Positions 18 through 15,313 of a DNA stretch of 64,000 nt are shown here, piece by piece. The notes beneath the pieces are model-generated. The model was not told the origin of the DNA. It worked only from the letters and a program-made list of their open reading frames with translations, and ran no database searches. The stretch is from NCBI GenBank assembly GCA_018268195.1, contig JAFDWZ010000026.1, forward strand, positions 64,491 through 128,490. The letters are read 5' to 3'. The stretch's first letter is position 1; every line of letters begins with the position of its first letter. Position numbers and translations under genes: made by a program. The stretch is from Bacteroidota bacterium. Its GTDB lineage: Bacteria > Bacteroidota > Bacteroidia > AKYH767-A > OLB10.

Positions 18-725
18 ATGGCTATTACACAACACGATTGTATTACCTGCAGTGTACGAGCATGTTCAATTCTTAATGAATGTGACAAGGAAACACTTAA
101 AGCAATCAGTAATTTTAAACTCACTAAATTTCTGGCAAAAGGCAAAAGGCTTTTCTCTGAAGGCGAACCCGTAGAAGGAGTATGTTTTATAAAGAAAGGC
201 TTTCTTAAAGTAGAGCTGAATGGAAAACAAGACAGACCTTTAATTCTTAAAATTGCCGGAAAGGGAACGGTCCTTGGTTATCGTATTAATGCCAAACATT
301 CTGTACATACATGCTCTGCAATTGCTGTTTCCGATGTGCAATATTGCTATGTGCCTTATGAGTTATTCGATAAAATTACTTCAAAAAGTTCTGAATTAAG
401 ACATCAGGTCATTAACCTTTTTATAGATGAACTTGAACTGGTAAAGAAAAAAGCACTGACTCTTGCACACAAAACTGTAAGAGAAAAAGTAGCCGAATCT
501 ATTTTATTGCTTGCCGAAACATTTAATTGTGAAAAAGAAGAAAATGAAATTTACATCAATTTCTGCAGACAGGATATAGCTGATTTAATTGGCACTACCA
601 AGGAGCAGGTTTCAAAAGTTATTAAAGATTTTGAAAAGGAAAAATTGATTAAATGCACTGCAAAAAAATTTAGTTATCTGGATATTTTCCGTCTTAACGA
701 AATTGCATTTCCCAACGTTCAGTGA
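18..725 (+). CDS. Crp/Fnr family transcriptional regulator with an FNR-like N-terminal cysteine cluster
   Basis: 235 aa. N-terminus reads DCITCSVRACSILNEC (C-x2-C-x4-C plus a fourth Cys). Central cNMP-binding-like beta-roll (GEPVEGVCFIKKGFLKV). C-terminal HTH (RQDIADLIGTTKEQVSKVIKDFEKEKLI). Lies directly upstream of the oxidase operon on the same strand. Confidence 0.85.
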   Translation: MAITQHDCITCSVRACSILNECDKETLKAISNFKLTKFLAKGKRLFSEGEPVEGVCFIKKGFLKVELNGKQDRPLILKIAGKGTVLGYRINAKHSVHTCSAIAVSDVQYCYVPYELFDKITSKSSELRHQVINLFIDELELVKKKALTLAHKTVREKVAESILLLAETFNCEKEENEIYINFCRQDIADLIGTTKEQVSKVIKDFEKEKLIKCTAKKFSYLDIFRLNEIAFPNVQ

Positions 726-875: not shown

Positions 876-1061
876 ATGGAAAATGATCAACAACAGGAAA
901 ACAAAAAAACTCCTTTCGGAAGAATGATTATGGACGACTTTATGTTGTTACTTTTTTTAGGAGTAACCATCTATGCCATTTTTTATCTGCTATGGGGTGT
1001 AATGGAACTTTCTAACCTGCCGGCAATTCCGGATGACGTCAAACAAAATTTAATCAATTAA
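876..1061 (+). CDS. Small single-TM membrane protein, possibly a ba3 subunit IIa (CbaD)-like peptide
   Basis: One hydrophobic helix (FMLLLFLGVTIYAIFYLLWGVM). Ends 24 nt before subunit II, the same position as cbaD in the Thermus cbaDBA operon. ATG at 876 is preferred over the TTG at 870. Confidence 0.5.
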   Translation: MENDQQQENKKTPFGRMIMDDFMLLLFLGVTIYAIFYLLWGVMELSNLPAIPDDVKQNLIN

Positions 1062-1085: not shown

Positions 1086-2000
1086 ATGAGTTTACTCAGC
1101 CCGGTCGAAGGATGGTACTATAAAAAAGTCGCTAAAGATGAAAAGATGTGGATGATTATTGCACTTGTGCTATGTATCGTTCTTTTCATTTGGATGATTA
1201 TGTGGCACGTATATGGAAAACAAAATCCATCCAGCACAACTTACCGAACAAGTACAACAGAGTTTTCCAGGCTCACCGAAGCATACATCAAACAAAACAT
1301 GGTAGGAATGGACAATGGAATACCCATTGTAAAACCAGAGCCTAACACTGATATTTTTCTGATGGCAGAAATGTGGAGATGGAGCCCGGTACTTATTCTT
1401 CAAAAAGATCAGTCTTACAAATTTCATATTTCTTCAAAAGATCTCGTTCATGGTTTATCCATTCAACCGGTAAATATGAACTTTCAGGTCTATCCGGGTT
1501 ATGATTATCTGTTAGAATTTAAGCCAACCGAGTCCGGTGAGTATAAGGTCATCTGCAATGAGTTTTGCGGCATAGGTCATCATACCATGATTGGAAAAAT
1601 TGTGGTTATTGAAAAAGAAGAGGAATTAAAATCGTATGGCTTTGCAGATTTGAAAAAACCCGCAGGCCGCTCTGCAACTAAAAAGAATGAACCGCTTTCT
1701 GAAGCTGAGATGGCACTCATGGGTGAACAGGTATATACGCTCAAAGGTTGTGCTGCGTGTCATAAAACAGATGGCACTAGTATGATTGCTCCCGGTTGGA
1801 AAGGCTTGTATGGAAAAGAAGAGCATGTTATTGCCGATGGAAAAAAAATAACTGTAAGAGTTGATGATGACTATATAAGAGAGTCCATCAAGAATCCTTC
1901 TAATAAAATCACAGTAGGATACGAAAACACTCCTATGCCGGTAATGGGTTTAACCGATGAAGAAATTTCACAGGTTATTGCATATATAAAAACACTTTAA
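1086..2000 (+). CDS. Heme-copper oxidoreductase subunit II (CuA cupredoxin domain) fused to a C-terminal mono-heme cytochrome c domain
   Basis: N-terminal TM helix. CuA ligand set is intact: DLVHGLS and CNEFCGIGHHTM (H, C-x3-C-x3-H-x2-M). C-terminal CAACH heme c motif with a downstream MPVM. Confidence 0.9.
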   Translation: MSLLSPVEGWYYKKVAKDEKMWMIIALVLCIVLFIWMIMWHVYGKQNPSSTTYRTSTTEFSRLTEAYIKQNMVGMDNGIPIVKPEPNTDIFLMAEMWRWSPVLILQKDQSYKFHISSKDLVHGLSIQPVNMNFQVYPGYDYLLEFKPTESGEYKVICNEFCGIGHHTMIGKIVVIEKEEELKSYGFADLKKPAGRSATKKNEPLSEAEMALMGEQVYTLKGCAACHKTDGTSMIAPGWKGLYGKEEHVIADGKKITVRVDDDYIRESIKNPSNKITVGYENTPMPVMGLTDEEISQVIAYIKTL

Positions 2001-2033: not shown

Positions 2034-3701
2034 ATGTTTAGAACTTGCGACATCACAGGATTTAAAGTTGACCTTCAGTCAGAAAAACTTATAAGAGCTA
2101 ATGCAGTATTTGCAGTCATATCATTGCTTTTTGCTGTTGTAGCTGCCATACTGCTTGTTTTCACCCGATATCAGCCTGTGCATTTGCTCGGTGCTGAATG
2201 GTACTATCGTTTGGTAACCTTTCATGGATTGAATGCACTCATCTTCTGGATTATATTTTTTGAAATTGCCGGACTTTATTTCGGCTCTACGGTGATATTA
2301 AATACAAAGTTCTGTGCTCCTAAATGGGGATGGGTAGCTTTTGCGCTCATGGTAGCAGGATTAGTGATTTGTAATATCATAATTCTTATGGGTAAAGCAG
2401 ATGTTATGCTTACTTCCTACACTCCTCTCAAAGCACATCCGTTATATTACTTGGGTATTATTCTGTTTGCTGTGGGTGCATTGCTTGCTGTTATTTTATT
2501 TTTCGGTAATCTGATGATTGCAAGACGTGATAAAACTTATGGTGAAACAATGCCTCTGGTAACTTACGGGTTGATGACTGCTGCTATCATTGCAGTTATA
2601 ACACTTGCTTCAGGAGCGCTTATATATATTCCAACATTTCTTTGGTCGCTCGGTTTAGTAGAAAACATTGATCCTGCCATGTATAAACTTATCTGGTGGG
2701 GTCTGGGACATTCCTCTCAGCAGATAAATGTTGCTGCAATGGTTTCTATATGGTATATGGTATCATTCTTAACTGTAGGAGGTACTTCTATCAACGAAAG
2801 GGTATCACGTTCAGCATTTGTGTTGTATATTTTATTTATCTGTCTTGCATCAGCACACCACCTGCTTACCGACCCTGGAGTAAGCAGCGCATGGAAAGTA
2901 TGGAACACCAGTTATGCCATGTATCTTGCTGTTCTTGCATCAATGATTCATGCATTCGCAGTGCCGTCATCCTTCGAATCGGCACAACGCAGATGGGGTT
3001 TCAACAAAGGATTGTTTCAGTGGTTGTCAAAAGCGCCATGGAGTAATCCTGCATTTTCTTCCATCATTCTTGCTGTTATCGGTTTTGGTTTTATCGGTGG
3101 CACTACAGGGGTGATTTTCGGAATGGAACAAACCAATATCATTGTTCACAATACAATTGCTATTCCGGGACACTTCAAGGGTACCGTAGTTATCGGGACC
3201 ACTCTCACATTTATGGGTATCACCTACTATCTCATTCCACTCATATTTCGCAGAAAAATTGTGGGCTTCAAATGGGCACAATGGCAACCATGGTTATTTT
3301 TTATCGGTATAGCATTACTTTCAATTTCAATGATTGTTCTCGGACAACTTGGTGTTCCTCGCAGACATTGGGATTCTTCTTTCTCCGGTGGTCCATTTAC
3401 ATATAACTTTAACCCTGCTGTTGATTTCTTCTGGGCACTGATGATGCTGGGTGGAACCATTGCCTTCCTTGCTACTATCATCTGGATTTTAATCGTGGTA
3501 ATTTCCGTATTCTTTGGTCCCAAAGTTAACGGGCCACAGGATATGCAACTTAAAATTTCGCCACTGGCACCGGAAGCAAAAGAACATAAAGGGCTTGAAG
3601 CTCCCGGTACACTGGTGCTTACAATGATATTCCTACTGGTATTTATAGCGTTATTCTTCCTCAACTGGAAGTGGCTTGCTGCCACCTGGAACGTAAATTA
3701 A
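2034..3701 (+). CDS. Heme-copper oxidoreductase subunit I, B-family (ba3)-like but with non-canonical active-site positions
   Basis: 555 aa, polytopic. Blocks align with Thermus ba3 CbaA as I recall it: VTFHGLNALIF, TSYTPLKAHPLYYLG, MPLVTYG, WSLGLVENIDP, WWGLGHSSQQ (versus WWTGHPIVY), SAHHLLTDPG, LSKAPWSNPAF, VHNTIAIPGHFKG (versus VHNTAWVPGHFHL). Confidence 0.9.
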   Translation: MFRTCDITGFKVDLQSEKLIRANAVFAVISLLFAVVAAILLVFTRYQPVHLLGAEWYYRLVTFHGLNALIFWIIFFEIAGLYFGSTVILNTKFCAPKWGWVAFALMVAGLVICNIIILMGKADVMLTSYTPLKAHPLYYLGIILFAVGALLAVILFFGNLMIARRDKTYGETMPLVTYGLMTAAIIAVITLASGALIYIPTFLWSLGLVENIDPAMYKLIWWGLGHSSQQINVAAMVSIWYMVSFLTVGGTSINERVSRSAFVLYILFICLASAHHLLTDPGVSSAWKVWNTSYAMYLAVLASMIHAFAVPSSFESAQRRWGFNKGLFQWLSKAPWSNPAFSSIILAVIGFGFIGGTTGVIFGMEQTNIIVHNTIAIPGHFKGTVVIGTTLTFMGITYYLIPLIFRRKIVGFKWAQWQPWLFFIGIALLSISMIVLGQLGVPRRHWDSSFSGGPFTYNFNPAVDFFWALMMLGGTIAFLATIIWILIVVISVFFGPKVNGPQDMQLKISPLAPEAKEHKGLEAPGTLVLTMIFLLVFIALFFLNWKWLAATWNVN

Positions 3702-3781
3702 CCGGGCTAACCTTCATGTTGAATATGGTGCATGAATATTTTTTTCATGCATGCAGAAAAGTTTATTTAATAGGAGATAAT

Positions 3782-4528
3782 ATGCGATATGTAGTAATAT
3801 TGGTTTTGCCTCTATGGATTTTGTTATGCGGATTTAATTTCCCTGATGAAAAAAAACATCTCGCACAAAAAGTTGCCGATATTACGGTGACGGATGCAAA
3901 CGGAAATTCTTACAAACTTTACTCGTTGCTGCGCAACAAACCGCTTATCATCTCACCGGTTTATACCCGATGTTATTCAACATGTGCCATTGTAAGTAAT
4001 GGCGTTCAGGCAGTAGTTAATCAACTTGGCACTTTGGGAAAAGACTTTAACATGCTCAGCTTTTCCTTCGATACTGCCGACAAAGCTGAAGATCTTACCA
4101 TTTATGAACTGCGATGGAAGATGGATGGAAATAACTGGCGAACTGTAACTGCATCTGATGCTGAAATAAAAAAGTTATTGACATCCATCGGATACGAGTA
4201 CGACTACAATGCCTCCACCCAACAGTATAATCATCCTTCCATATTGGTGGTTCTAACACCCAGCGGTAAAATATCAAGATACATATATGGTATTAATCCT
4301 TCAAAGAAAGATGTAAACTTAGCAGTGATAGAAGCTGCTGCAGAACAGTCAAGGCCGGGATTAATTCAGGGGTTTTATCTCCGTTGTTTTGGTTACGACC
4401 CCATATTAAAAACCTACAAAATGGATTGGCGATTTATTATTTCCACTTCTGCAGGACTATTGATGATATCCTTGGTAAGTGGAATTTTTATACGATCTTT
4501 TATTATTTCAAAACACCATGACGGATAA
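3782..4528 (+). CDS. SCO1/SenC family copper chaperone (thioredoxin fold), membrane anchored
   Basis: CxxxC motif (RCYSTC, nt 3971-3985) and a downstream conserved His context (YNHPSILVVLTPSGKISRYIYG). N-terminal signal/anchor and a C-terminal TM. Start moved to ATG 3782 (MRYVVILVLPLW), which is preceded by aggag. Confidence 0.8.
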   Translation: MRYVVILVLPLWILLCGFNFPDEKKHLAQKVADITVTDANGNSYKLYSLLRNKPLIISPVYTRCYSTCAIVSNGVQAVVNQLGTLGKDFNMLSFSFDTADKAEDLTIYELRWKMDGNNWRTVTASDAEIKKLLTSIGYEYDYNASTQQYNHPSILVVLTPSGKISRYIYGINPSKKDVNLAVIEAAAEQSRPGLIQGFYLRCFGYDPILKTYKMDWRFIISTSAGLLMISLVSGIFIRSFIISKHHDG

Positions 4529-6467
4529 CATTAAAGAACAGCCGGCCCGCAAAGAACGAACGTATGGACATCAATTGTTTCAGAAATTTTCTTCCTTCTT
4601 CGGAAAAATATATTCTACCGATTTAAATCCTTTATACAACCTGGGCGGCATTGCCGTACTAATGTTTACCATTGCCTGTATTTCCGGCATATATATTTTT
4701 ATTTTTTACAATATCAATCCACGCGATGCCTGGGATTCAGTAGAGGCTATGTCAAACAACACTTTTAACGGATGGATGAGAACTATTCATCGTTACTCTT
4801 CTGATTTACTGGTGATTTTCATTTTGCTTCACTTGCTCCACACTTTGTTTACTTCAAAGTTTAAACGTCTTGTATCATGGATCAGTGGAATAATTTCCTT
4901 TTTAGTGGTAGTGATTATCGGTGTTACCGGCTTCATGCTTGTGTGGGATCAAAAAGCAAAACTTGCAGGATATCTTACTGCAAAACTTTTTTCCAGTCTT
5001 CCCATTTTCGACCCATCCATTGCGGGAGCATTTCTGCTCAACGACCTTAACACTGTTGGCGGATTTTTCAAAGTTGCATTATTTGGCCATATAGTTTTTT
5101 CGTTGGTAACAGTAATCATTATCTGGATTCATCTTCTTCGTATTTCCAAACCCAAATTATTTCCTCCTAAAAAACTGATCATTTACATCATCATCGCATT
5201 GGGAATTATTTCAATTGCAATACCGGTAAAAAGCGATCCACCGGCTCAGATGTCAAACCTGCCTATTCAAACTACATTCGACTGGTACTATTTTTTCGGA
5301 TACTATCTGATGAAATTGTTTACCGTTAATCAGAATTGGTTCATATTAACCGGTTCAGGAATCATACTGTGCATTATTCCTTATCTTATCAAAAGAAAAA
5401 ATAATCCACCCGTTTATATTGATCTCGACAAATGTGATGCTTGTAATCTCTGCTCCTATGACTGCCCCTATGAAGCCATTGATATGCTTCCACACAATGG
5501 CGCAAGAAAAGCCATTCTCTCACCTGACAAGTGTGTAGGTTGTGGTATCTGTATTGGCTCTTGTGCAGAGCATGCCATCAGTCACCCAATATACCCTGAG
5601 TTAATACTGCAGCAACGCAAGAAATCTGATTTGGCTGTATTCAGTTGCAGTTACTTTCCGGAGCCTGAATGGCCTTCAGGATTAGACATAGTACATTACA
5701 GAGTGCCTTGCACAGGGAGTGTTATGCCGAAGGATGTACAGCAAATGCTGGACAACAACTCCGAAAAAGTTGCTATTCTCGGTTGTGAAGATTGCTATTA
5801 TCGTCTGGGCAAAAACTGGACTATAAACCGTTTTCTGCGCAAAAGACCACCCACTTTTTCAAAGAAATTTGATGCTTCAAAAGTCAAAATGTTTACACTT
5901 ACTCAATACAATAAAGATAAACTTTTAGCATTTTCAAAGGAAGCTTCATCTGCCGATATAAGAACAGGAACATTAGGCGTTGATGACCACCAAAAAAGCA
6001 ATCCTATTCTTTCTACATTAATTCTTATAGTATTCTTTTCGCTGATGATTCCGTTCAGTAATACTACCGTTCATTTTTTCAACCCACAGGAAAAAACACT
6101 TATCGTAAACTTTAAATATATTTCTACTCCGCAAGAGTACGAACAAGTAAATACCGGAGCAGCACACATGAGGGCACTCAACCCTGTGGTTAAGAAAAGA
6201 AGTCCGGTGAAACTTACAATCTATTCAGCAAACAACAGCCGGTTGCTGTTTGAAAAAGAATTTTCTCCTCGTGGTCTTCGGCATGATATTGCAATGTTTA
6301 TTTATACACAGCTGAATATTGAAGCTGACAGTGTAAATGTGGATATAACAGAAACAGCCTTCCCCGACAAACATTACGAAATTAAAAATGTACATTTGAA
6401 AAAAGGCGATGGCACTTTTGTAATTTTTAAAGATGATAAACTGCAGGTCGCAGGAAAAAATGAATAG
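4518..6467 (+). CDS. Fusion protein: diheme cytochrome b (bc1/b6-type N-terminal domain), 2x[4Fe-4S] ferredoxin, MvhD/FlpD-like domain, TM helix and an uncharacterised C-terminal domain
   Basis: Two His pairs, each 14 residues apart on predicted helices: codons 4788/4830 (RTIHRY...LLH) and 5088/5130 (FGHIVF...WIH). CDACNLCSYDCP at 5433-5468 and CVGCGICIGSC at 5532-5564. MvhD-like Cys pattern (FSCSYF...VPCTGSV...ILGCEDCYY, about 5631-5830). Late TM helix (ILSTLILIVFFSLMIPF) followed by about 150 aa. Start at ATG 4518 overlaps the SCO gene end by 11 nt. Confidence 0.8.
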   Translation: MTDNIKEQPARKERTYGHQLFQKFSSFFGKIYSTDLNPLYNLGGIAVLMFTIACISGIYIFIFYNINPRDAWDSVEAMSNNTFNGWMRTIHRYSSDLLVIFILLHLLHTLFTSKFKRLVSWISGIISFLVVVIIGVTGFMLVWDQKAKLAGYLTAKLFSSLPIFDPSIAGAFLLNDLNTVGGFFKVALFGHIVFSLVTVIIIWIHLLRISKPKLFPPKKLIIYIIIALGIISIAIPVKSDPPAQMSNLPIQTTFDWYYFFGYYLMKLFTVNQNWFILTGSGIILCIIPYLIKRKNNPPVYIDLDKCDACNLCSYDCPYEAIDMLPHNGARKAILSPDKCVGCGICIGSCAEHAISHPIYPELILQQRKKSDLAVFSCSYFPEPEWPSGLDIVHYRVPCTGSVMPKDVQQMLDNNSEKVAILGCEDCYYRLGKNWTINRFLRKRPPTFSKKFDASKVKMFTLTQYNKDKLLAFSKEASSADIRTGTLGVDDHQKSNPILSTLILIVFFSLMIPFSNTTVHFFNPQEKTLIVNFKYISTPQEYEQVNTGAAHMRALNPVVKKRSPVKLTIYSANNSRLLFEKEFSPRGLRHDIAMFIYTQLNIEADSVNVDITETAFPDKHYEIKNVHLKKGDGTFVIFKDDKLQVAGKNE

Positions 6468-6470
6468 CCT

Positions 6471-7148
6471 CTATTTAAAAAGTTCAAGCACCTTGATTCC
6501 GGTTACTGCAATCTGAAGTCCGACACAAAATATGAGAAAAGCCATTATTCTGTTAATGTAAGTTTCGGTATGAGAGCCAAGGTATTGAAGTATCGTTTTT
6601 GTTTTCAGGTAAAAAACATAAATTAAAATGCACATGATAGTGATAGCTGTAAGAATTGCAGCAGTGTTTATCAAATAACTTACGGTGCTGGCATTTTCGC
6701 TGTGCGCGCCCAGTGTAAACAGCACCGATATAACACCTGCACCCGCAGTGATGGGAAAAGTAAGTGGGTAAAATAATTGATTCCGCAAGTTATCCAATCC
6801 TGTACCTGAAGCGGTATTTTCCTTCACTGCATCCTCAACACTTTCGCCACTTCCTGTGGTAAGTGAGTCCCATCCAATTTTGCATATCATAATACCTCCT
6901 GCCAGTTGAATAACAGGGATGGAAATTCCGAATAGCTCAAGAATCCAGTGGCCGGCAAATAACACTATTGAGCATAAGATAAAAACGTACAACACGATTT
7001 TTTTTACTGCTGTGCGCTTGGCTGCTTTATCCAGACCATCCATATAAGGGCTTACTATGAATGCTGAACCAACCGGGTTGATTACCGGAAACAGTGCTAC
7101 TGTACTCAGAAAAAGTAAATGCAGAAAGGAGTGTAAATTTTCATTCAT
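6471..7148 (-). CDS. MarC family (UPF0056) integral membrane protein
   Basis: 225 aa, multi-TM, with the NPVGSAFIV-type N-terminal motif typical of MarC/UPF0056 proteins. Confidence 0.75.
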   Translation of the reverse strand: MNENLHSFLHLLFLSTVALFPVINPVGSAFIVSPYMDGLDKAAKRTAVKKIVLYVFILCSIVLFAGHWILELFGISIPVIQLAGGIMICKIGWDSLTTGSGESVEDAVKENTASGTGLDNLRNQLFYPLTFPITAGAGVISVLFTLGAHSENASTVSYLINTAAILTAITIMCILIYVFYLKTKTILQYLGSHTETYINRIMAFLIFCVGLQIAVTGIKVLELFK

Positions 7149-7424
7149 TCTGGTGGTGAAATTAATAAATTGTTTCGGAGTTATAATCCAAACCTGCTAA
7201 GGCCTTTTCATTCAAATAATATTACTTGGTATTAAAATAAAGACTAGGAAATTGGTTAATTGACGATTGTGATGGAATGCTAAATCTCGGCCAAGTGAGC
7301 TCTTTCATCATCTTCTTCTTCATTCCGAAATATTACAATACATATATTACATATTTATGGCAAACATTTTTTCTTCTTTATTATAAAGAAAATGTATGGT
7401 ATATATTTGTGAAAATTATTTTTT

Positions 7425-7793
7425 ATGAAATTACTTTTTCCTTCTCTTGTACTGATTTTACTCGCAACTGGCGGATATAGTCAGGTTGCTAAATCCCTCA
7501 GTAAAAAACCTGATCCTGCTAAAGAACTTATGTTAGTTGAAGCTTCCTGTGGTGAATGTAGTTATGGTATGCCCGGCAAAGATTGCGACCTTGCAGTAAA
7601 AATTAAAGACAGCACTTATTTTGTTGACGGTGTGAGCATTTATGAATTCGGTCATCCCCATGATGCTAATGGTTTTTGTATTGCAATTCGTCATGCCGAA
7701 GTACAAGGCGAAGTAGTAAACGGACGATTTAAGGCAAGTTACTTCAAATTACTGAAGGAGGACGAGCAAAATAATAAAGCTAAAGAAAACTGA
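7425..7793 (+). CDS. Hypothetical secreted protein, small and Cys-containing
   Basis: Signal peptide (MKLLFPSLVLILLATGGYSQ). CGEC plus two further Cys. Lys/Glu-rich tail. I cannot confidently assign a family. Confidence 0.55.
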   Translation: MKLLFPSLVLILLATGGYSQVAKSLSKKPDPAKELMLVEASCGECSYGMPGKDCDLAVKIKDSTYFVDGVSIYEFGHPHDANGFCIAIRHAEVQGEVVNGRFKASYFKLLKEDEQNNKAKEN

Positions 7794-7815
7794 TTGCACG
7801 TTATTTAAATAGGCA

Positions 7816-8403
7816 TCAGTTGCGCACCGACAGTTCTCCGCGCTCTATTGATTGAACAATTTGTTCTATCATTTTATCTTCTCCCTGAGGGTCGTATTGC
7901 GATTTAAGGTTGGCTGTGAAAAGTCTGGCTATACTCTGCCAGAAAAATGCCTGCAATGAGCCTCGCAGTTCTTTTACCAATTCATAGGACGTATTACCTG
8001 TTTCGCGGTTGATTAGTTTTATGAGAATTTTTCCTTGTGTATATGTAAGATTACGAAGATCTTTTTCGAATTGAGCTTTCATTATATTTTCCTGCTCTTT
8101 AATAAATTTCTTCTTCTCACGTTCTGTTTTTATGGTTGATACTGTTTCATTAATATAACTTAACTCCGCTGAGGCAATTTTTGCATAAGGGTATGCTTTA
8201 ATTACATCTCGTCTTAATTTGATATAATTACGTGCTTCGTCCGAAGCTGTAGCTGGCAGAAATGCAACTATATCCACAACAGGTAATGTGTAGTAAGGAA
8301 TGGTATCACCATTAAAAAATGCACTGGATGAACTAACAGGGGTTTGTGCCTGCGATGCCAACCGAAGACTGCAAATTATGATTATGGTTAAAAAGTATTT
8401 CAC
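7816..8403 (-). CDS. DUF4294-like secreted protein
   Basis: Signal peptide. Motifs recalled for DUF4294: VIKAYPYAK, LTYTQGKILIKLINRETGNTSYELVKELRG, FFWQSIARLF, LKSQYDP. Confidence 0.65.
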   Translation of the reverse strand: MKYFLTIIIICSLRLASQAQTPVSSSSAFFNGDTIPYYTLPVVDIVAFLPATASDEARNYIKLRRDVIKAYPYAKIASAELSYINETVSTIKTEREKKKFIKEQENIMKAQFEKDLRNLTYTQGKILIKLINRETGNTSYELVKELRGSLQAFFWQSIARLFTANLKSQYDPQGEDKMIEQIVQSIERGELSVRN

Positions 8404-8484
8404 CGTCTTTGATTATTCAAACTATCTGCCAACTTTGTTATTGTGCAAACTGACTTCATTTGTAATTAATGTGATTTACAAAGT

Positions 8485-9969
8485 TTAATTCAGTCTGTTG
8501 TTACGCCATAAAGAGACATGGCTGCCTGCAGGGGTAGCTGTTTTGGACGAATTACTTTCCTCAAAAAACAATTCGGCAGCAAGTGCGGCTATTTCTTCTT
8601 CGGCTACATCCGACTTTTGAAGATACTCCGGTTTAAAATATTTCTTTACGAAATTGGTATCAAACTGTGCTTTTACAAAAGCCGGATGCTCCATTACGAA
8701 GCGGCAAAATGGCAATGTCGTTTCGCAACCTGTTATTTTGTATTCGTCAATAGCACGTATCATTCGTTGAATCGCTTCTTCACGATTACGTCCATAGGTA
8801 ATAAGTTTAGCAATCATCGAATCGTAATAAATAGGTATTTCCATACCTTGCTCATATCCATCATCCACTCTCACTCCTACTCCACGTGGTGGCTGATACA
8901 CTGACAACGTACCCACGTTAGGTAAAAAATTATTGGCCGCATCCTCAGCATAAACTCTTACTTCCATTGCATGACCGTGAATCTTTAAATCTTCCTGACG
9001 AAAACTCAGTTTCTTGCCTGCTGCCACTAAAATCTGTTCGCGCACCAAATCCAACCCTGTAATCATTTCTGTTACCGGATGCTCAACCTGCAACCGTGTA
9101 TTCATTTCCAGAAAATAAAAGTTCATTTTTTCATCCATCAGAAACTCAACCGTACCTGCACCGGTATAGTTACATGCTTTTGCAACCATCACTGCACATT
9201 CACCCATTTGCTTGCGGATATTATCATCCAGAATTCCTGAAGGAGCTTCTTCAATTACCTTCTGATGCCTCCGCTGCACAGAACATTCTCTCTCGAAAAG
9301 ATATACAATATTGCCATGGCTATCACCCATTATCTGAATTTCGATGTGTCGGGGTGAAGCCACATATTTTTCAATAAACACACTGCCATCACCAAAAGCT
9401 GACAATGCTTCGTTCATGGCTGTCCTTACTGCTTCGTCAAATGCCTGTTCGTTTTCCACAACACGCATGCCTTTGCCTCCTCCTCCTGCGCTTGCTTTTA
9501 TCAAAACAGGAAATCCTGTTTCTACAGCTATTTTTCTTGCCTTATCAATATCCTTTATGGCGTAATCTGTTCCCGGAACCATCGGAACGTTAAATTTTTT
9601 GGCTGCTTCTTTAGCTCCCAATTTACTTCCCATCATACGCATGGCATGAGGTGACGGCCCTATAAATACCAGTCCAGCATCAATGATAGCCTGTGCGGCA
9701 TCAGCATTTTCTGATAGAAATCCATAGCCGGGATGAACAGCCTGAGCTCCGGTTTTTCGGGCTGCATCTATAATTTTTTCAACAACCAGATAAGATTGTG
9801 ATGAAGGTGAAGGGCCTATATGAACTGCTTCATCTGCATAATACACGTGTGGAGCATGCCTGTCGGCATCGCTATAAACTGCTACTGTTCTGATTCCCAT
9901 GTCGCGAGCAGTGCGCATTACGCGCAAAGCAATTTCGCCCCGATTGGCTATTAATATTTTAGAAAACAT
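8485..9969 (-). CDS. accC: Biotin carboxylase (acetyl-CoA or other acyl-CoA carboxylase alpha component, without a BCCP domain)
   Basis: MFSKILIANRGEIALRVMRT N-terminus, ATP-grasp glycine loop (GGGGKGMRVV), EMNTRLQVEHPVTE motif. Confidence 0.9.
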   Translation of the reverse strand: MFSKILIANRGEIALRVMRTARDMGIRTVAVYSDADRHAPHVYYADEAVHIGPSPSSQSYLVVEKIIDAARKTGAQAVHPGYGFLSENADAAQAIIDAGLVFIGPSPHAMRMMGSKLGAKEAAKKFNVPMVPGTDYAIKDIDKARKIAVETGFPVLIKASAGGGGKGMRVVENEQAFDEAVRTAMNEALSAFGDGSVFIEKYVASPRHIEIQIMGDSHGNIVYLFERECSVQRRHQKVIEEAPSGILDDNIRKQMGECAVMVAKACNYTGAGTVEFLMDEKMNFYFLEMNTRLQVEHPVTEMITGLDLVREQILVAAGKKLSFRQEDLKIHGHAMEVRVYAEDAANNFLPNVGTLSVYQPPRGVGVRVDDGYEQGMEIPIYYDSMIAKLITYGRNREEAIQRMIRAIDEYKITGCETTLPFCRFVMEHPAFVKAQFDTNFVKKYFKPEYLQKSDVAEEEIAALAAELFFEESNSSKTATPAGSHVSLWRNNRLN

Positions 9970-10144
9970 ACTTTTTGATGCTAAGCGTGCAAATTTAAAA
10001 GTAATTTGCTGCCATTGCTATAAAGTTACCTATATGCCGTTTTGGTGTTTTTGGTTGAAAAATCCATGCATTTCACCAAAAATATCATTGTTAAACGTCT
10101 ATTTTTTTCATTACTTTGCAGTCTCAAAAAAATAAATTCATATT

Positions 10145-11761
10145 ATGAACGAATACGGTTTAAGAAACCCGAATTTTTCTGTAGCTGATTTAGGATTGAA
10201 AAACGTATCAGCTGCATATTGGAATCTCAGCGTTGCCGAATTAGTAGAAGAAGCCATACTAAAAGGCGAAGGTGAATTATCAGATTTTGGCGCATTGGTG
10301 GTTGACACCGGTGAGTTTAAAGGACGTTCTCCTAAAGATAAATTCGTGGTTTGTGATAACGAAACAGAAAACTCAGTTTGGTGGGGTGATGTTAATTTTA
10401 AGTTTGATTCAGCAAAATTCGACTTATTATACAATCGTGTGGCAGCTTATCTATCAGGCAAAGAAGTTTATATAAGAGATTGCTATGCCTGTGCCGATCC
10501 TCGTTACAGACTTAACATCCGTGTAGTTACCGACTCTCCTTATCAGAGTATTTTTGCAAATAATTTGTTTTTGCGCCCTACACCGGAAGAAATTACAAAG
10601 GCCGAAAAAGACTGGACCATTGTGGCAGCTTCAGGGTTCTATGCCGATCCTGCCATTGACGGAACACGCCAGCATAATTTTGCGATTGTAAATTTTACCA
10701 AGAAAATAATTCTTATTGGTGGTACAGGTTATACCGGTGAAATAAAGAAAGGTATTTTCTCTGTATTGAACTATGTGTTGCCTCATCATAAAAATGTGTT
10801 GAGTATGCACTGCTCTGCCAACATTGGCAAAAATGGTGACACTGCCATTTTCTTTGGACTTTCAGGAACAGGAAAAACTACTTTAAGTGCTGACCCAAAC
10901 CGTGGTTTGATAGGTGATGATGAACATGGATGGAGCGATAATACCGTATTTAATTTTGAAGGCGGATGTTACGCTAAATGTGTTAACCTGAGTGCTGAAA
11001 AGGAACCTCAGATTTATAATGCTATTCGTTTTGGTTCTTTGTTGGAGAATATAGAGTTTTACGAAGGAACCACCAAGGTTGATTTTGATAATATTTCAAA
11101 AACAGAAAATACACGTGTTGCATATCCGATTAACTTTATCGAAAACGCTGTTGAACCTTCTGTAGCCGGTACTCCCAAAAACATCTTCTTCCTTACTTGT
11201 GATGCATTTGGTGTGTTACCTCCTATTTCCAGACTTACAACAGGACAGGCTATGTACCATTTCATCAGCGGTTATACTGCCAAAGTAGCCGGTACTGAAG
11301 TTGGTATTACCGAACCTGTTACTACATTTTCAGCATGTTTTGGTAAAGCATTTCTTCCACTTCACCCAACAAAATATGCTGAGTTACTCGGTAAGAAATT
11401 AGATGAAAATAAAAACATCAGAGTGTGGTTGGTTAATACCGGCTGGAGCGGAGGGTCTTATGGTGTAGGTGCAAGAATGAAACTTTCTTACACTCGCGCT
11501 ATGATAACAGCAGCTTTAAATGGAGAACTTGATAAGGTTGATTTTGAAACACTTCCGGTGTTTAATTTGCAATATCCGGTATCCTGCCCTAATGTACCTT
11601 CAGAGATTCTGAACCCAAAAGCTACATGGGCTGATAAAGCTACTTACGATAATAAATTAGCTGATCTTGCTTCTAAGTTTGTTAAAAACTTTGAACAGTA
11701 TGCTTCTAAAGCAAATAGCGAAATACTGGCTGCTGCCCCTAAAGTGCCGGTGGTAGCTTGA
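10145..11761 (+). CDS. pckA: Phosphoenolpyruvate carboxykinase (ATP)
   Basis: 538 aa. Kinase-1a motif GLSGTGKTTLS, GDDEHGW, and overall PckA-like sequence. Confidence 0.95.
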   Translation: MNEYGLRNPNFSVADLGLKNVSAAYWNLSVAELVEEAILKGEGELSDFGALVVDTGEFKGRSPKDKFVVCDNETENSVWWGDVNFKFDSAKFDLLYNRVAAYLSGKEVYIRDCYACADPRYRLNIRVVTDSPYQSIFANNLFLRPTPEEITKAEKDWTIVAASGFYADPAIDGTRQHNFAIVNFTKKIILIGGTGYTGEIKKGIFSVLNYVLPHHKNVLSMHCSANIGKNGDTAIFFGLSGTGKTTLSADPNRGLIGDDEHGWSDNTVFNFEGGCYAKCVNLSAEKEPQIYNAIRFGSLLENIEFYEGTTKVDFDNISKTENTRVAYPINFIENAVEPSVAGTPKNIFFLTCDAFGVLPPISRLTTGQAMYHFISGYTAKVAGTEVGITEPVTTFSACFGKAFLPLHPTKYAELLGKKLDENKNIRVWLVNTGWSGGSYGVGARMKLSYTRAMITAALNGELDKVDFETLPVFNLQYPVSCPNVPSEILNPKATWADKATYDNKLADLASKFVKNFEQYASKANSEILAAAPKVPVVA

Positions 11762-12282: not shown

Positions 12283-14451
12283 TTATTTAGCTAACTGCTC
12301 TTTGTATTTCTTCAACTCATTATTATAGTTGGACTCTGACATACTTGTGGTGTTTTTGAAATAATATATACCCCCCCAATTATATACCACCTTAGAGAAT
12401 ACATCCGTTGAAGTTGATTTTTTAATAATCGTTCTGAAGATTTTCCTATTCGACTCATCAATGGTTTCTTCAGTAATACCTTCGGCATAGTTGGTGTCAA
12501 TAAAAACAGGTAGTGATGCTGTGGATTGTTTTTTCTCTGACTGCTCATTTGCTTTTGCCAATGCACGTTTTTGATCTTCAAGTTCGCGCAAACGTCTTGC
12601 TTCGGCTTCCTCTTGTTGGCGCTTTTTGGCAGCTGCAGCTTCAACTCTTGCTGTGCTGTCAGCTTCAAATTTAGCTCTTGCTTCAGCAGCAGCGCGCGCT
12701 TTGGCATCGGCTTCAGCTTTTGCTTTTGCTGCAGCTTCAGCTTTCACAGCACTATCCTGACGGCTTTTTTCCAATGCTGCCAAACGTGCCTTTTCAAGAG
12801 CTTCTTCTTTGGCTTTCTGCTCTGCCAGTGCTTTGGCATTTGCTATGGAATCTTGTCTTGCTTTTTCAAGTGCGAGCTGGCGCAAACGTTCTTGCTCTTT
12901 GGCTGCGGCTTCAGCTTTCAAAATACTATCCTGACGGGCTTTCTCCAAAGCTGCCAATCGTGCTTTTTCCAAAGCCTCTTCCTTGGCTTTCTGCTCAGCT
13001 AGCGTTTTGGCATTTGCAATAGAGTCTTGTCTTGCTTTTTCAAGTGCTACCTGGCGTAAACGTTCTTGTTCCTTAGCTTCTGCTTCAACTCGTGCAACAC
13101 TGTCTTTTCTGGCTTTTTCCAATGCTGCCAAACGCGCTGCTTCGGCAACTTTAGCGGCAGCTTCAGCTTTAGCTATACTATCTTGTCGGGCTTTCTCAAG
13201 GGCAGCTAATCTTAGTCGTTCATTCTCGCGGGCAACCGCTTCAGCCTTTTCCACACTGTCTTTTCTTGCCTTTTCCAATGCGGCCAAACGTGCCGCTTCT
13301 GCTGCCTTAGCAGCAGCTTCAGCCTGTGCAATACTATCCTGACGTGCCTTTTCAAGCGCTGCAAGTCTTCGCTGCTCTGCTGCATTGGCTTTGGCAATAC
13401 TGTCCTGTCTGACTTTTTCAAGTGCAGCTAATCGTGCTTGCTCCTTTGCGGCCTCTCTTGCTAATCTGTCTTCTTCGGCTTTTACTTTTGCTAAACTATC
13501 TTGCCGTGCTTTCTCCAACTCCGCAAGTCGTTTTTGTTCGGCATCTTTAGCCTGAGCTATGCTGTCTTGTCGGGCTTTTTCAAGTGCAGCAAGTCGTTTT
13601 TGTTCGGCAGCCTGCTCACGCGCCAGCTGCTCGGCAAGTGCCTTTGCTTTATCAATACTATCTTGTCGGGCTTTTTCTAAAGCAGCAAGACGTGCTCTTT
13701 CCAGAGCATCAGCTTTCAATTGCTCAGCTCTTAAACTATCATCTTCACGCTTTTTAGCCGCAGCAAAGGCAGCCTGACGCTCAGCTTCCAGTTTTTTCTG
13801 TTGTTCCTCTTCTTTCTTTTTCTGCGCAGCTTCAGCCAAACGAACCTGTTCATCAGCTTTCGCTTTGTTTATGGAATCCAGGCGTGCATGAGCAAGTGAG
13901 TCCTTCCTTTGTTTTTCCTGTGCGACAGCCTGTTCTTCCAAAGTCTTTTTAACTTGTTCGTTTTCCTGTTTACGTGCATTGGAGTACTCAATATCGTAAT
14001 CAAAATCATCATAGGAATCATTCCAACTCCATTTGGCTACCGGTTTTTCCAATGTTTTTGGCTGCTCAACTCCTTCGGGTACTTTAAACAGGTCAATACC
14101 AAACTTTCGGTTAGACAGTAATTGGTTTTTTATAGGTTCAGGTACACGAGTATCAAATATGATTGATTTGGTAACACATCCGCTTTTTGAAAACAACAAG
14201 GTGTAAACGGCATCCAGATCAAGATTGACTATAAATTTTCCATTGTTACCTGAAAGGATATTGTCCACTTGTTCATTACCTTTCATTACCTTGATTTCTG
14301 CACCTTCAAGACCTTTGCCGTTTTGCTTAACATTACCAAGCAATTCCAAGCTACCCTTTTGAGCGAAAATTGCAGGTGAAAGACAAAGCACCAGTAACGT
14401 AGTCAGTATTAAACGACCGGTGTATTTTTTTAAAGTATTAATCTTTGACAT
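12283..14451 (-). CDS. Membrane-anchored or secreted coiled-coil repeat protein with a CarboxypepD_reg-like N-terminal beta domain
   Basis: Start moved to the internal Met (MSKINTLKKYTGRLILTTLLVLCLSPAIFAQ, a signal/anchor). Beta-sandwich-like segment GNVKQNGKGLEGAEIKVMKGNEQV...YTLLFSKSGCVTKSIIFDT. Roughly 400 aa of Ala/Glu/Lys/Arg-rich heptad-like sequence. Globular C-terminus. Confidence 0.85.
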   Translation of the reverse strand: MSKINTLKKYTGRLILTTLLVLCLSPAIFAQKGSLELLGNVKQNGKGLEGAEIKVMKGNEQVDNILSGNNGKFIVNLDLDAVYTLLFSKSGCVTKSIIFDTRVPEPIKNQLLSNRKFGIDLFKVPEGVEQPKTLEKPVAKWSWNDSYDDFDYDIEYSNARKQENEQVKKTLEEQAVAQEKQRKDSLAHARLDSINKAKADEQVRLAEAAQKKKEEEQQKKLEAERQAAFAAAKKREDDSLRAEQLKADALERARLAALEKARQDSIDKAKALAEQLAREQAAEQKRLAALEKARQDSIAQAKDAEQKRLAELEKARQDSLAKVKAEEDRLAREAAKEQARLAALEKVRQDSIAKANAAEQRRLAALEKARQDSIAQAEAAAKAAEAARLAALEKARKDSVEKAEAVARENERLRLAALEKARQDSIAKAEAAAKVAEAARLAALEKARKDSVARVEAEAKEQERLRQVALEKARQDSIANAKTLAEQKAKEEALEKARLAALEKARQDSILKAEAAAKEQERLRQLALEKARQDSIANAKALAEQKAKEEALEKARLAALEKSRQDSAVKAEAAAKAKAEADAKARAAAEARAKFEADSTARVEAAAAKKRQQEEAEARRLRELEDQKRALAKANEQSEKKQSTASLPVFIDTNYAEGITEETIDESNRKIFRTIIKKSTSTDVFSKVVYNWGGIYYFKNTTSMSESNYNNELKKYKEQLAK
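12715..13701 (-). repeat. In-frame tandem repeat array: 12 copies of LEK[A/V/S]R[Q/K]DS spaced 22-32 aa apart, including a 58-aa higher-order duplication
   Basis: Counted in the translation at residues 269, 301, 324, 355, 377, 404, 429, 455, 481, 513, 539 and 571 of the tracked ORF. Residues 471-528 and 529-586 differ at only about 5 of 58 positions (nt 12727-13074). Confidence 0.85.
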
Positions 14452-15313
14452 TAAAAATACGGTTTGAGAATAATATACATTCATTCAGTTTATCTCTATC
14501 TATAGTTAAATGGTAATTATTTTTTAAAAAGTATTGTACTGCATTTTCAGTTGCAAGGTTTCCTGTCAGGTGATCTTCTGCCATTGGGCAGCCGCCAAAT
14601 CCTCTTATTGCCATGTCAAACCGGGTACATCCATGCTGAGCTGCAGCATTCAGTTTTTCTTCCCATGCTGTGGGAGTAACATGCAGGTGGGCTCCGAATT
14701 CCACATCAGGATAGGATGGTATAAGCTCTGAAAACAAGTAAGAAATATCTTCCTTGCGTGCCATTCCTACCGTATCGGCAAGTGAAATTACAGATATTCC
14801 CTCATTAATCATCTTTTCTACCCATTGTCCCACAATTTCAGTATTCCAAGTATCGCCATAAGGGTTGCCAAAACCCATTGATATGTATATCACCAGATTT
14901 TTGTTGTTTTTCACACATAATTCCTGCATCCGCTTCACGGTTTCAAAGGATTCTGCAATGGTGCTGTTGGTATTGCGTAATTGAAATGTTTCGGATATTG
15001 AAAACGGAAAACCCAGAAAAGTTATTGCGGCATGTTTAATTGCATCTTCAGCTCCTCGCTGATTGGCAACAATTGCCAAAAGTTTGGTCTGTGAGGAAGA
15101 TACATCCAACCCTGCAAGTACTTCTGTTGTGTCTTTCAACTGTGGGATAGCTTTAGGGGAAACAAAACTTCCAAAATCAAGCGTATCAAACCCAACTTTC
15201 AAAAGCATATTCAGGTATTCGGTTTTCAAGCTTGTGGGAATAAACTCATGCATTCCCTGCATGGCATCTCGCGGACATTCAATAAGTTTGACTTCTTGTT
15301 TCAATGAATTCAA
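14438..15313 (-). CDS. Hydroxymethylglutaryl-CoA lyase
   Basis: HMGL-like TIM barrel. N-terminal ECPRDAMQG motif and a conserved His-containing C-terminal half (GAHLHVT). Confidence 0.85.
   Translation of the reverse strand: MNSLKQEVKLIECPRDAMQGMHEFIPTSLKTEYLNMLLKVGFDTLDFGSFVSPKAIPQLKDTTEVLAGLDVSSSQTKLLAIVANQRGAEDAIKHAAITFLGFPFSISETFQLRNTNSTIAESFETVKRMQELCVKNNKNLVIYISMGFGNPYGDTWNTEIVGQWVEKMINEGISVISLADTVGMARKEDISYLFSELIPSYPDVEFGAHLHVTPTAWEEKLNAAAQHGCTRFDMAIRGFGGCPMAEDHLTGNLATENAVQYFLKNNYHLTIDRDKLNECILFSNRIFNVKD

Follow-up and report, generated by a model that had tools for sequence, protein, structure and literature searches.

The window analysed here (the whole 64,000-nucleotide stretch, positions 64,491 to 128,490 of contig JAFDWZ010000026.1 in the Bacteroidota bacterium assembly GCA_018268195.1) carries on its forward strand, at positions 4518 to 6467, a gene whose product of 649 residues, counted from an ATG (an alternative GTG start lies at 4479), joins a cytochrome b to two [4Fe-4S] motifs, an MvhD-like domain, a seventh transmembrane (TM) helix and a periplasmic beta-sandwich. 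This protein is probably a conserved accessory redox protein, or helper, of the gene cluster of eNOR, the haem-copper nitric oxide (NO) reductase encoded upstream of it. The eNORs are reported to be among the most widespread environmental NO reductase families and have been described as the enzymes of "aerobic" denitrifiers that release nitrous oxide (N2O) (PMC11214002); neither an electron supply route nor accessory proteins are named for them in the main texts of the eNOR papers. The eNOR and sNOR papers examined contain no description of the present protein; the one exception in the literature found is a preprint of May 2026 on Ferrigenium straubiae. There, two genes of the eNOR operon with partial similarity to chain C of the bc1 complex are called "rather unusual" and used as Ferrigenium markers, a quinol:NAD+ oxidoreductase is proposed for the form with an FAD/NAD module, and both paralogs are reported in the proteome under denitrifying conditions (bioRxiv 10.64898/2026.01.22.701106). 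The near-universal association of the family with eNOR over more than 15 phyla is not in that preprint, and appears to be otherwise undescribed. The individual gene is ordinary for its family, and the family is uncharacterised.

The association holds in both directions. In the scans seeded with homologs of the protein, eNOR subunit I was sought within 8 kb, and it was found in 73 of the 79 loci of the first scan (the other six having too little upstream sequence) and in 69 of the 80 loci of a proteobacterial scan, where ten were too short and one (L104) was without it; that is, 142 of the 143 loci with enough flanking sequence carry subunit I. Conversely, among the 80 best loci seeded with subunit I, a homolog lies within 2.1 kb in 67 (median distance 1.1 kb), being divergently oriented in 18 of them and on the strand of subunit I in the other 49, again over more than 15 phyla. 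These loci come from Bacteroidota, Aquificota, Nitrospirota, Gemmatimonadota, Bdellovibrionota, Methylomirabilota, Myxococcota, Acidobacteriota, Leptospiraceae, Kiritimatiellia, Lentisphaeria, Latescibacterota and Proteobacteria. As for the remainder, 11 have short flanks, and two (L218 and L190) have at least 4 kb on both sides and no clear match, L190 giving a weak partial one. Only 37 of these 67 eNOR loci with a homolog contain the copper chaperone gene senC, so the gene studied here is tied to eNOR more tightly than the chaperone is. Such near-universal linkage to haem-copper genes supports the functional tie to the adjacent enzyme that a sequence-only reading of this DNA had proposed. 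That reading had also called the protein an unusual fusion, a description that does not hold, since the architecture belongs to a very large conserved family, of which the split form alone accounts for at least 6850 clusters at 90% identity; its members are currently labelled "hydrogenase iron-sulfur subunit", "cytochrome b6" or "cytochrome b N-terminal domain-containing protein". A sequencing or annotation artefact as the origin of the fusion was ruled out by the presence of a fused form of about 645 residues in 59 Bacteroidota species. Cultured carriers include Thioalkalivibrio denitrificans, Wenzhouxiangella and the Ferrigenium cultures; a genome scan aimed at a Magnetospirillum carrier returned only eight loci from metagenome-assembled genomes (MAGs). 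In three MAGs, nirS, coding for the cytochrome cd1 nitrite reductase, adjoins the eNOR/cytochrome b cluster (Cyclobacteriaceae, L056, 8658-10358; Flavobacteriales, L057, ~10015-11706; Aquificota, L171, 11531-14847).

The adjacent enzyme had been taken for an oxidase of unspecified type; its sequence identifies it instead as an eNOR-type NO reductase, and neither as an oxidase nor as an sNOR. Subunit I, a member of the COX1 family (2034..3701, forward strand), has the motifs GH226SSQQ, HH275/276 and GHFK382, and the Gln of the first of these takes the position of the cross-linked Tyr of oxygen reductases and is invariant in eight diverse subunit I sequences. A Gln at this position is the signature of eNOR, and an Asn that of sNOR/CuANOR (PMC8756737, Table A4, after Hemp and Gennis 2008). 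Bacteroidota have GHFK where Proteobacteria have GHFH, with Lys at the position of the second helix-X His; the motif fits the His/Lys ligation of the low-spin haem reported in some eNORs (PMC11214002, section 7). The enzyme of Rhodothermus marinus is a biochemically proven NO reductase, expressed under microoxic conditions, with haem A_s in both sites and a low turnover (0.68 NO per second) with N,N,N',N'-tetramethyl-p-phenylenediamine (TMPD)/ascorbate (PMC11214002). The same activity and haem A_s are predicted by family for the enzyme of the window, being known for the R. marinus enzyme only. The norSY-senC-orf1 cluster of the sNOR of ammonia oxidisers was considered as an alternative identity and rejected, given the Gln rather than Asn at the Tyr position; moreover, two genome scans and a protein search gave no homolog from an ammonia oxidiser. 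A third reason for the rejection comes from a related cluster of Bacillus, compared by Heylen and Keltjens to that of the nitrifiers: its senC is followed by a gene for a small protein of about 190 residues with six TM helices (PMC3475470), unlike the one described here.

The features attributed to the gene by the sequence-only reading are all present where it had placed them, and Pfam, PDB-sequence and Foldseek searches back each of its domain assignments. Hydropathy gives seven TM segments, and an AlphaFold2 model of the full-length protein, computed from a 95-sequence alignment, reaches a predicted local distance difference test score (pLDDT) of 88.8 and a predicted TM-score (pTM) of 0.86, with an all-beta C-terminal domain. 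Among 95 homologs from Bacteroidota and Proteobacteria, the four haem-ligand His and 12 Cys residues do not vary. In a wider set of 59 sequences, drawn from more than 15 phyla, each of them is conserved to 95% or more, with the exception of C426, which falls below that cut-off. Because it is conserved across homologs and phyla, this ligand pattern is not due to chance. The protein is expected to bind b haems and iron-sulfur (Fe-S) clusters.

The cytochrome b N-terminal domain, helices A to D, spans residues 30-210 (4605..5147, forward strand) and is recognised by Pfam PF00033 (Cytochrome_B, 71.3 bits against a cut-off of 27.2), by a sequence match in the PDB to cytochrome b6 (E = 5e-24) and by Foldseek, whose top 50 matches are all cytochrome b of bc1 or b6f complexes (probability 1.00, target TM-score 0.45-0.68). 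Two bis-His sites of the form H-x13-H lie on helices B and D, and the bc-type spacing noted before, with two His pairs 14 residues apart (H91/H105, codons at 4788 and 4830; H191/H205, codons at 5088 and 5130), is confirmed. By homology, the ligands of haem bL would be H91 and H191, near the p side, and those of haem bH, H105 and H205. A conserved VWD motif (W143, D144; 4944-4949) resembles PWDQ. The region that follows (residues 219-292; 5172..5393, forward strand) corresponds, in profile alignments, to a truncated C-terminal region of cytochrome b made of helices E and F and the ef loop. The "additional TM helices" of the sequence-only reading do exist, then; they are these cytochrome b helices and not extras. 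The cytochrome b part has in this way six of the usual eight helices, with only E and F out of helices E to H. With full-length profiles, the alignment to mitochondrial cytochrome b reaches about residue 302, and the Pfam search of the protein gave no match to PF00032, the C-terminal cytochrome b family. In the ef loop, the stretch TTFDWYY aligns to PEWY in both chicken cytochrome b and b6f subunit IV, with D255 (5280-5282) at the place of the Glu, an alignment that is weak when tested alone (E = 0.013 and 0.37). The VWD motif, PA[DQ] and the Asp at the PEWY position are kept across phyla. The Cys that binds haem cn in b6 (FYCLGG) is absent, the aligned position reading LYNLGG. The conserved residues suggest that a Qo-like pocket is retained on the p side, where a quinone may be housed.

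On the other side of the membrane lies the Fe-S module. The homology to cytochrome b places the N-terminus in the cytoplasm together with loops B-C and D-E, both of which are rich in Lys and Arg. The ferredoxin-type domain (PF00037/PF12838; 5412..5582, forward strand; two Fer4 matches, conserved Cys, topology) begins only 12 residues past TM6, and because the first cluster motif follows that helix so closely, both [4Fe-4S] clusters and the MvhD-like domain are cytoplasmic. A cytoplasmic location had been thought plausible from helix count, and it agrees with the cytochrome b homology, with the positive-inside rule and with the lack of a Tat or Sec signal. The first motif is C306-x2-C309-x2-C312-x3-C316-P317 (5433-5468) and the second C339-x2-C342-x2-C345-x3-C349 (5532-5564), the next residue being Ala; both ferredoxin motifs proposed earlier are therefore present, and the ending in Cys-Pro claimed for the two holds for the first, the second ending in Cys-Ala. 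The MvhD/FlpD-like domain comes next (5625..5939, forward strand), with four Cys, C377 (5646), C398 (5709), C423 (5784) and C426 (5793), in the contexts FSC377SY, PC398TGSV and GC423EDC426YY. This assignment, which had been made from the Cys pattern, is borne out by Pfam (FlpD, PF02662, 27.1 bits against a cut-off of 22.3) and by profile matches of the region to the solved MvhD chains 8rvv_F, 8rvu_F, 9sw2_D and 5odc_D (E = 2e-9 to 9e-8). The four Cys presumably bind a [2Fe-2S] cluster; the spacing is C-x2-C in Bacteroidota, as against C-x4-C in MvhD and in the homologs from Proteobacteria. No HdrA or [NiFe] hydrogenase partner is encoded in the operon or in those fetched loci that were inspected.

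After the MvhD-like domain, the seventh TM helix (residues 496-516; 6003..6065, forward strand), found by hydropathy and by AlphaFold2, takes the chain back to the periplasmic side. The claim of one further helix followed by a beta-rich domain was thus correct, the C-terminal 133 residues (517-649; 6066..6464, forward strand) forming a beta-sandwich that, modelled alone, has a pLDDT of 90.6. This domain has no Pfam family. Copper-chaperone, cupredoxin, Rieske and FixG_C-like folds were considered for it and discarded, there being no match to a Pfam family or to a PDB fold. Its relatives come from the split form of the protein: in Proteobacteria the cytochrome b gene product stops after the MvhD-like domain (about 500-525 residues) and is followed by a gene of about 170 codons, orf2, coding for an N-terminal TM helix and a beta domain homologous to the C-terminal domain described here. 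A Dadabacteria sequence and the sequence P0197 are fused forms that bridge the split and fused types. The two Cys of the proteobacterial orf2 are missing in Bacteroidota, and only an Arg, a P-x-G and an Asp are conserved across all forms of the beta domain. A profile of the module searched against 1.84 billion representatives retrieved only 202 proteins, nearly all of them standalone proteins of about 165-180 residues or the C-termini of fusions of 620-720 residues; the beta module is thus specific to the cytochrome b/eNOR system. In the Magnetococcus MAG that is the only clear exception to the linkage (L104), a pair of the cytochrome b gene and orf2 (6935-8993) lies away from eNOR, flanked by isc/cysE genes and by a DmsABC-like molybdoenzyme with a NapC-type cytochrome.

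The cytoplasmic end of the protein is exchangeable. In betaproteobacterial eNOR operons, a paralog has a plant-type [2Fe-2S] ferredoxin (Fer2) and an FNR-like FAD/NAD module in place of the Fer4 and MvhD-like domains. For example, in Burkholderiales the slot after senC is occupied by a six-TM cytochrome b with LDWFY and these modules (L213, 9700-11634), and a search with the FAD/NAD variant gave the same architecture in all 120 of the top-ranked clusters. In two loci, the Fer2-FAD-NAD paralog and the Fer4-FlpD form stand in one operon (L234, 5953-7935 and 8448-10025; L235, 8001-9941 and 10404-12002), with an orf2-like gene of about 170 codons after each paralog in L235 and after the FNR-type paralog only in L234. 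As both paralog types occur in eNOR operons, the cytochrome b/orf2 unit would couple to NAD(P)H in one case and to a ferredoxin/MvhD-type end in the other, and the side-by-side arrangement hints at a heterodimeric cytochrome b. These two operons also contain a COX1-like gene and one to three COX15/CtaA genes. The idea that CtaA and the cytochrome b protein are alternatives to each other was discarded, as they are not mutually exclusive and both occur in betaproteobacterial operons. A divergent gene of the COX1 family (about 430-480 residues), with no subunit II of its own, is seen in many eNOR clusters (L065, 10075-11472; L234, 10018-11457; L235, 14479-15906; L170, 8595-9890) and could correspond to what the Ferrigenium preprint calls the "eNOR scaffold protein".

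How such a protein might help eNOR is a matter of graded probabilities. The reading that we prefer, tentatively and at somewhat less than an even chance, is an electron-transfer partnership with eNOR in which electrons flow outward. The protein would act as a transmembrane electron wire between the cytoplasmic clusters and the Qo-like pocket of the p side, and electrons would pass from a cytoplasmic donor to the [2Fe-2S] cluster, the two [4Fe-4S] clusters, haem bH, haem bL and finally a quinone or partner on the p side. The membrane potential would assist this outward flow, and reducing power would thereby be directed towards NO reduction under microoxic, denitrifying conditions. We take the beneficiary to be eNOR catalysis rather than eNOR assembly, and electrons would leave haem bL or the pocket towards CuA. 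Outward flow is favoured because Fer2-FAD-NAD modules of the FNR type, such as that of the paralog, oxidise NAD(P)H, and because the membrane potential assists it, as in the di-haem succinate:menaquinone reductases. The partnership itself is favoured because respiratory reductases as a rule have electron-input modules of their own, encoded in the operon; quinol-dehydrogenase modules of this kind (NapGH, NapC) are usual for periplasmic reductases, and NapH also bears cytoplasmic [4Fe-4S] clusters, of uncertain role. Several observations weigh against it. The operon of the window encodes no cytoplasmic partner for the MvhD end, and the p side shows no redox cofactor other than haem bL, so there is no evident link to CuA. 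The periplasmic domain has no evident set of conserved metal ligands, and its model, a generic beta-sandwich, matches no PDB fold at E <= 1e-3. Subunit II of eNOR has a normal CuA, here plus a cytochrome c, and because of this the enzyme could be served by an ordinary cytochrome c. In many operons the gene follows biogenesis genes (ctaB, senC). Finally, the R. marinus eNOR was purified and is active with TMPD/ascorbate, and the main text of that work describes no extra subunit (PMC11214002).

Some of these points lead to maturation or maintenance, a serious rival that we consider less probable, in which the protein would wire reducing equivalents to the building or repair of eNOR cofactors and not to turnover. 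The electrons might go to haem A synthase (CtaA) for the making of haem A_s, or to the reduction of Cu(II) or Fe(III) for the CuA or non-haem metal site, in analogy with NosR for NosZ, CcoG for cbb3 and Arh1/Yah1 for Cox15. The proteobacterial gene does come after ctaB and senC, and betaproteobacterial operons combine one to three COX15/CtaA genes with the Fer2-FAD-NAD paralog, whose cofactor set is that of the ferredoxin reductase and [2Fe-2S] ferredoxin serving mitochondrial Cox15; CcoG, too, is a polyferredoxin of the membrane that ends in a beta domain. On the other hand, other CuA or haem-a enzymes are not known to need a protein of this type, and a conserved Qo-like pocket would be expected in a respiratory module sooner than in an assembly factor. 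The eNOR of R. marinus has haem A_s in both sites, was described as purified and active without the protein, and belongs to a family whose operons often contain a CtaA homolog (PMC11214002), all of which would suit maturation; yet the Bacteroidota operon, including that of the window, lacks both ctaA and ctaB and keeps the gene, and many phyla keep it without senC (present, as said, in 37 of 67 loci).

The retained Qo scaffolding, together with the absence of a Qi-type His and of haem cn, may alternatively be read as a sign of bifurcation of the Qo type, an idea that we regard as improbable. Quinol would be oxidised in the p-side pocket without a Rieske protein, one electron going to NO reduction (~+1.2 V) and the second, by way of bL, bH and the Fe-S chain, to a low-potential acceptor, which would be NAD(P)+ for the FNR-type paralog and ferredoxin or another partner for the MvhD end, and part of the free energy of NO reduction would in this way be stored as low-potential reductant. 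The low-potential cytoplasmic chain does end in MvhD, or in FAD/NAD in the paralog, and the family is carried by many lineages of chemolithoautotrophs that need reverse electron flow: Aquificota, Nitrospirota, Methylomirabilota, Burkholderiales, Thioalkalivibrio and, according to the literature, Gallionellaceae (bioRxiv 10.64898/2026.01.22.701106; PMC10734462). In fact, the quinol:NAD+ oxidoreductase proposed in the Ferrigenium preprint is coupled to NO reduction (bioRxiv 10.64898/2026.01.22.701106). However, the pocket has no Rieske-like one-electron acceptor; the transfer would run uphill, to ~-320 mV, and in opposition to the membrane potential; heterotrophic Chitinophagaceae conserve the family just as well and have no obvious need for such a reaction; and no experimental hint points to it. 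A general respiratory enzyme (for example a ferredoxin:quinone or NAD(P)H:quinone oxidoreductase) under common regulation with eNOR, but without any specific tie to it, would be compatible with the cofactor chemistry, which does not itself require eNOR, and with the Magnetococcus pair that lies away from it. This we judge very improbable in view of the near-universal two-way linkage in more than 15 phyla, divergent-promoter arrangements included, and of a periplasmic module that is confined to this context, its 202 representatives being nearly all standalone proteins of the orf2 type or C-termini of fusions.

The rest of the operon of the window is ordered as a Crp/Fnr regulator, a small TM open reading frame (ORF), eNOR subunit II, subunit I, SCO1/SenC and the gene under study. 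Subunit II (1086..2000, forward strand) is composed of a CuA cupredoxin (CNEFCGIGHHTM) and a C-terminal cytochrome c (CAACH). Directly 5' of it is a conserved, apparently unannotated ORF of 61 codons with a single TM helix (876..1061, forward strand; ...LLLFLGVTIYAIFYLLWGVM...), which is probably a small eNOR subunit. Of the 233 loci fetched, 187 give a tblastn match to it, and in all but two of these (185) it ends less than 400 bp before subunit II. The SCO1/SenC copper chaperone (3779..4528, forward strand; longest ORF from 3671) ends within the cytochrome b gene, the start of which overlaps the senC stop codon (4528). The regulator (18..725, forward strand), of the Crp/Fnr family and with an N-terminal cluster of Cys (C8, C11, C16, C22), is found upstream of the operon in most Bacteroidota loci, and this suggests control of the operon in response to O2 or NO. 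The FNR box TTGAT-N4-ATCAA has only chance-level matches, none of them 5' of the operon; an inverted repeat, TGACAttTGTCA, lies at 804-815, between the regulator gene and the 61-codon ORF. The absence of a Rieske protein claimed earlier stands, both for the operon and for the window as a whole, in which no genuine Rieske motif occurs; the operon encodes no cytochrome c1 or f either, and no further denitrification genes were seen among the large ORFs of the window that were sampled. Downstream, a gene for a MarC-family membrane protein (6471-7148, reverse strand) converges on the cytochrome b gene, with 3 nucleotides between the stop codons, and is followed by one for a DUF6370 protein (7425-7793, forward strand), neighbours that are kept only in the closest relatives (L024, L035). 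Further away, an Ala/Glu/Lys-rich protein of 733 residues (12283-14484, reverse strand) has an N-terminal signal or anchor and many near-identical repeats of RLAALEKARQDSI.

These results are of biological significance because eNOR makes N2O, a greenhouse gas, and a di-haem partner with five cofactors in more than 15 phyla implies that the two-subunit picture of eNOR lacks a component that affects its function in the cell. Which role is the right one decides whether denitrification by eNOR conserves more or less energy than assumed. If the role is maturation, the protein might be the electron donor for haem A synthesis that has long been missing in bacteria, and bifurcation, if true, would be a new way to conserve the energy of denitrification and a new solution to reverse electron flow in lithoautotrophs. 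The gene pair could mark N2O producers of the eNOR type in metagenomes.

The cytochrome b, ferredoxin and MvhD-like domains truly belong to their respective domain families, and comparison with known systems places the whole protein near several of them. It is not a component of bc1 or b6f, although its best sequence and fold matches are there and it shares with their cytochrome b the four-helix bundle, the two bis-His sites, VWD, helices E and F and, by an alignment that is weak when tested alone, an acidic residue at the PEWY position; it differs in having six of eight helices, no Rieske protein, no cytochrome c1 or f and no haem cn Cys, in its linkage to an NO reductase, and in a low-potential chain that runs into cytoplasmic Fe-S clusters instead of a Qi site. 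From its sequence it is assigned neither to the NapH/NosR/CcoG families nor to ExtP. The cytochrome b of the Geobacter-type Cbc/ExtP systems is similarly b6-like and without a Rieske partner, and NF040969 (cytb_ExtP) is the best NCBIfam match (99.3 bits against a cut-off of 290); those proteins, however, partner with periplasmic multihaem cytochromes, which are absent here. With NapH/NosH, NosR and CcoG (FixG) it has in common a membrane anchor with two cytoplasmic [4Fe-4S] clusters and an operon of a denitrification or haem-copper enzyme, and an extracytoplasmic domain is found in CcoG and NosR as well; opinion on the function of these polyferredoxins is divided between electron supply and maturation. 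Their membrane domain is nevertheless unrelated, with neither b haems nor an MvhD domain, and the NCBIfam NapH models score 23-25 bits, over the Fer4 stretch only, against cut-offs of 213-234. The MvhD/FlpD proteins (PF02662) have the same four conserved Cys, but in the present protein the domain is tethered to a membrane cytochrome and has no HdrA or hydrogenase partner. Two stacked b haems that connect a p-side quinone site to cytoplasmic Fe-S clusters are also found in NarI/NarH, in SdhC/SdhB of the di-haem succinate:quinone and quinol:fumarate oxidoreductases, in HdrE/HdrD and in QmoC, and Qmo combines, as the present protein does, b haems, [4Fe-4S] clusters and an MvhD-like domain (in QmoB). 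The NarI/FdnI/SdhC type, in contrast, belongs to another cytochrome b fold family than the bc type on which the present protein is built, and ends in a catalytic cytoplasmic subunit, which this operon does not encode. Finally, the proteins of the Ferrigenium straubiae eNOR operon, a type of operon also recovered in L213, L234 and L235, are of the same family and occupy the same position, and one of the two consists, like the protein of the window, of a cytochrome b with Fe-S clusters; the form of the window, by contrast, stands without an FAD/NAD paralog at its side and carries the orf2 module fused to its own C-terminus.

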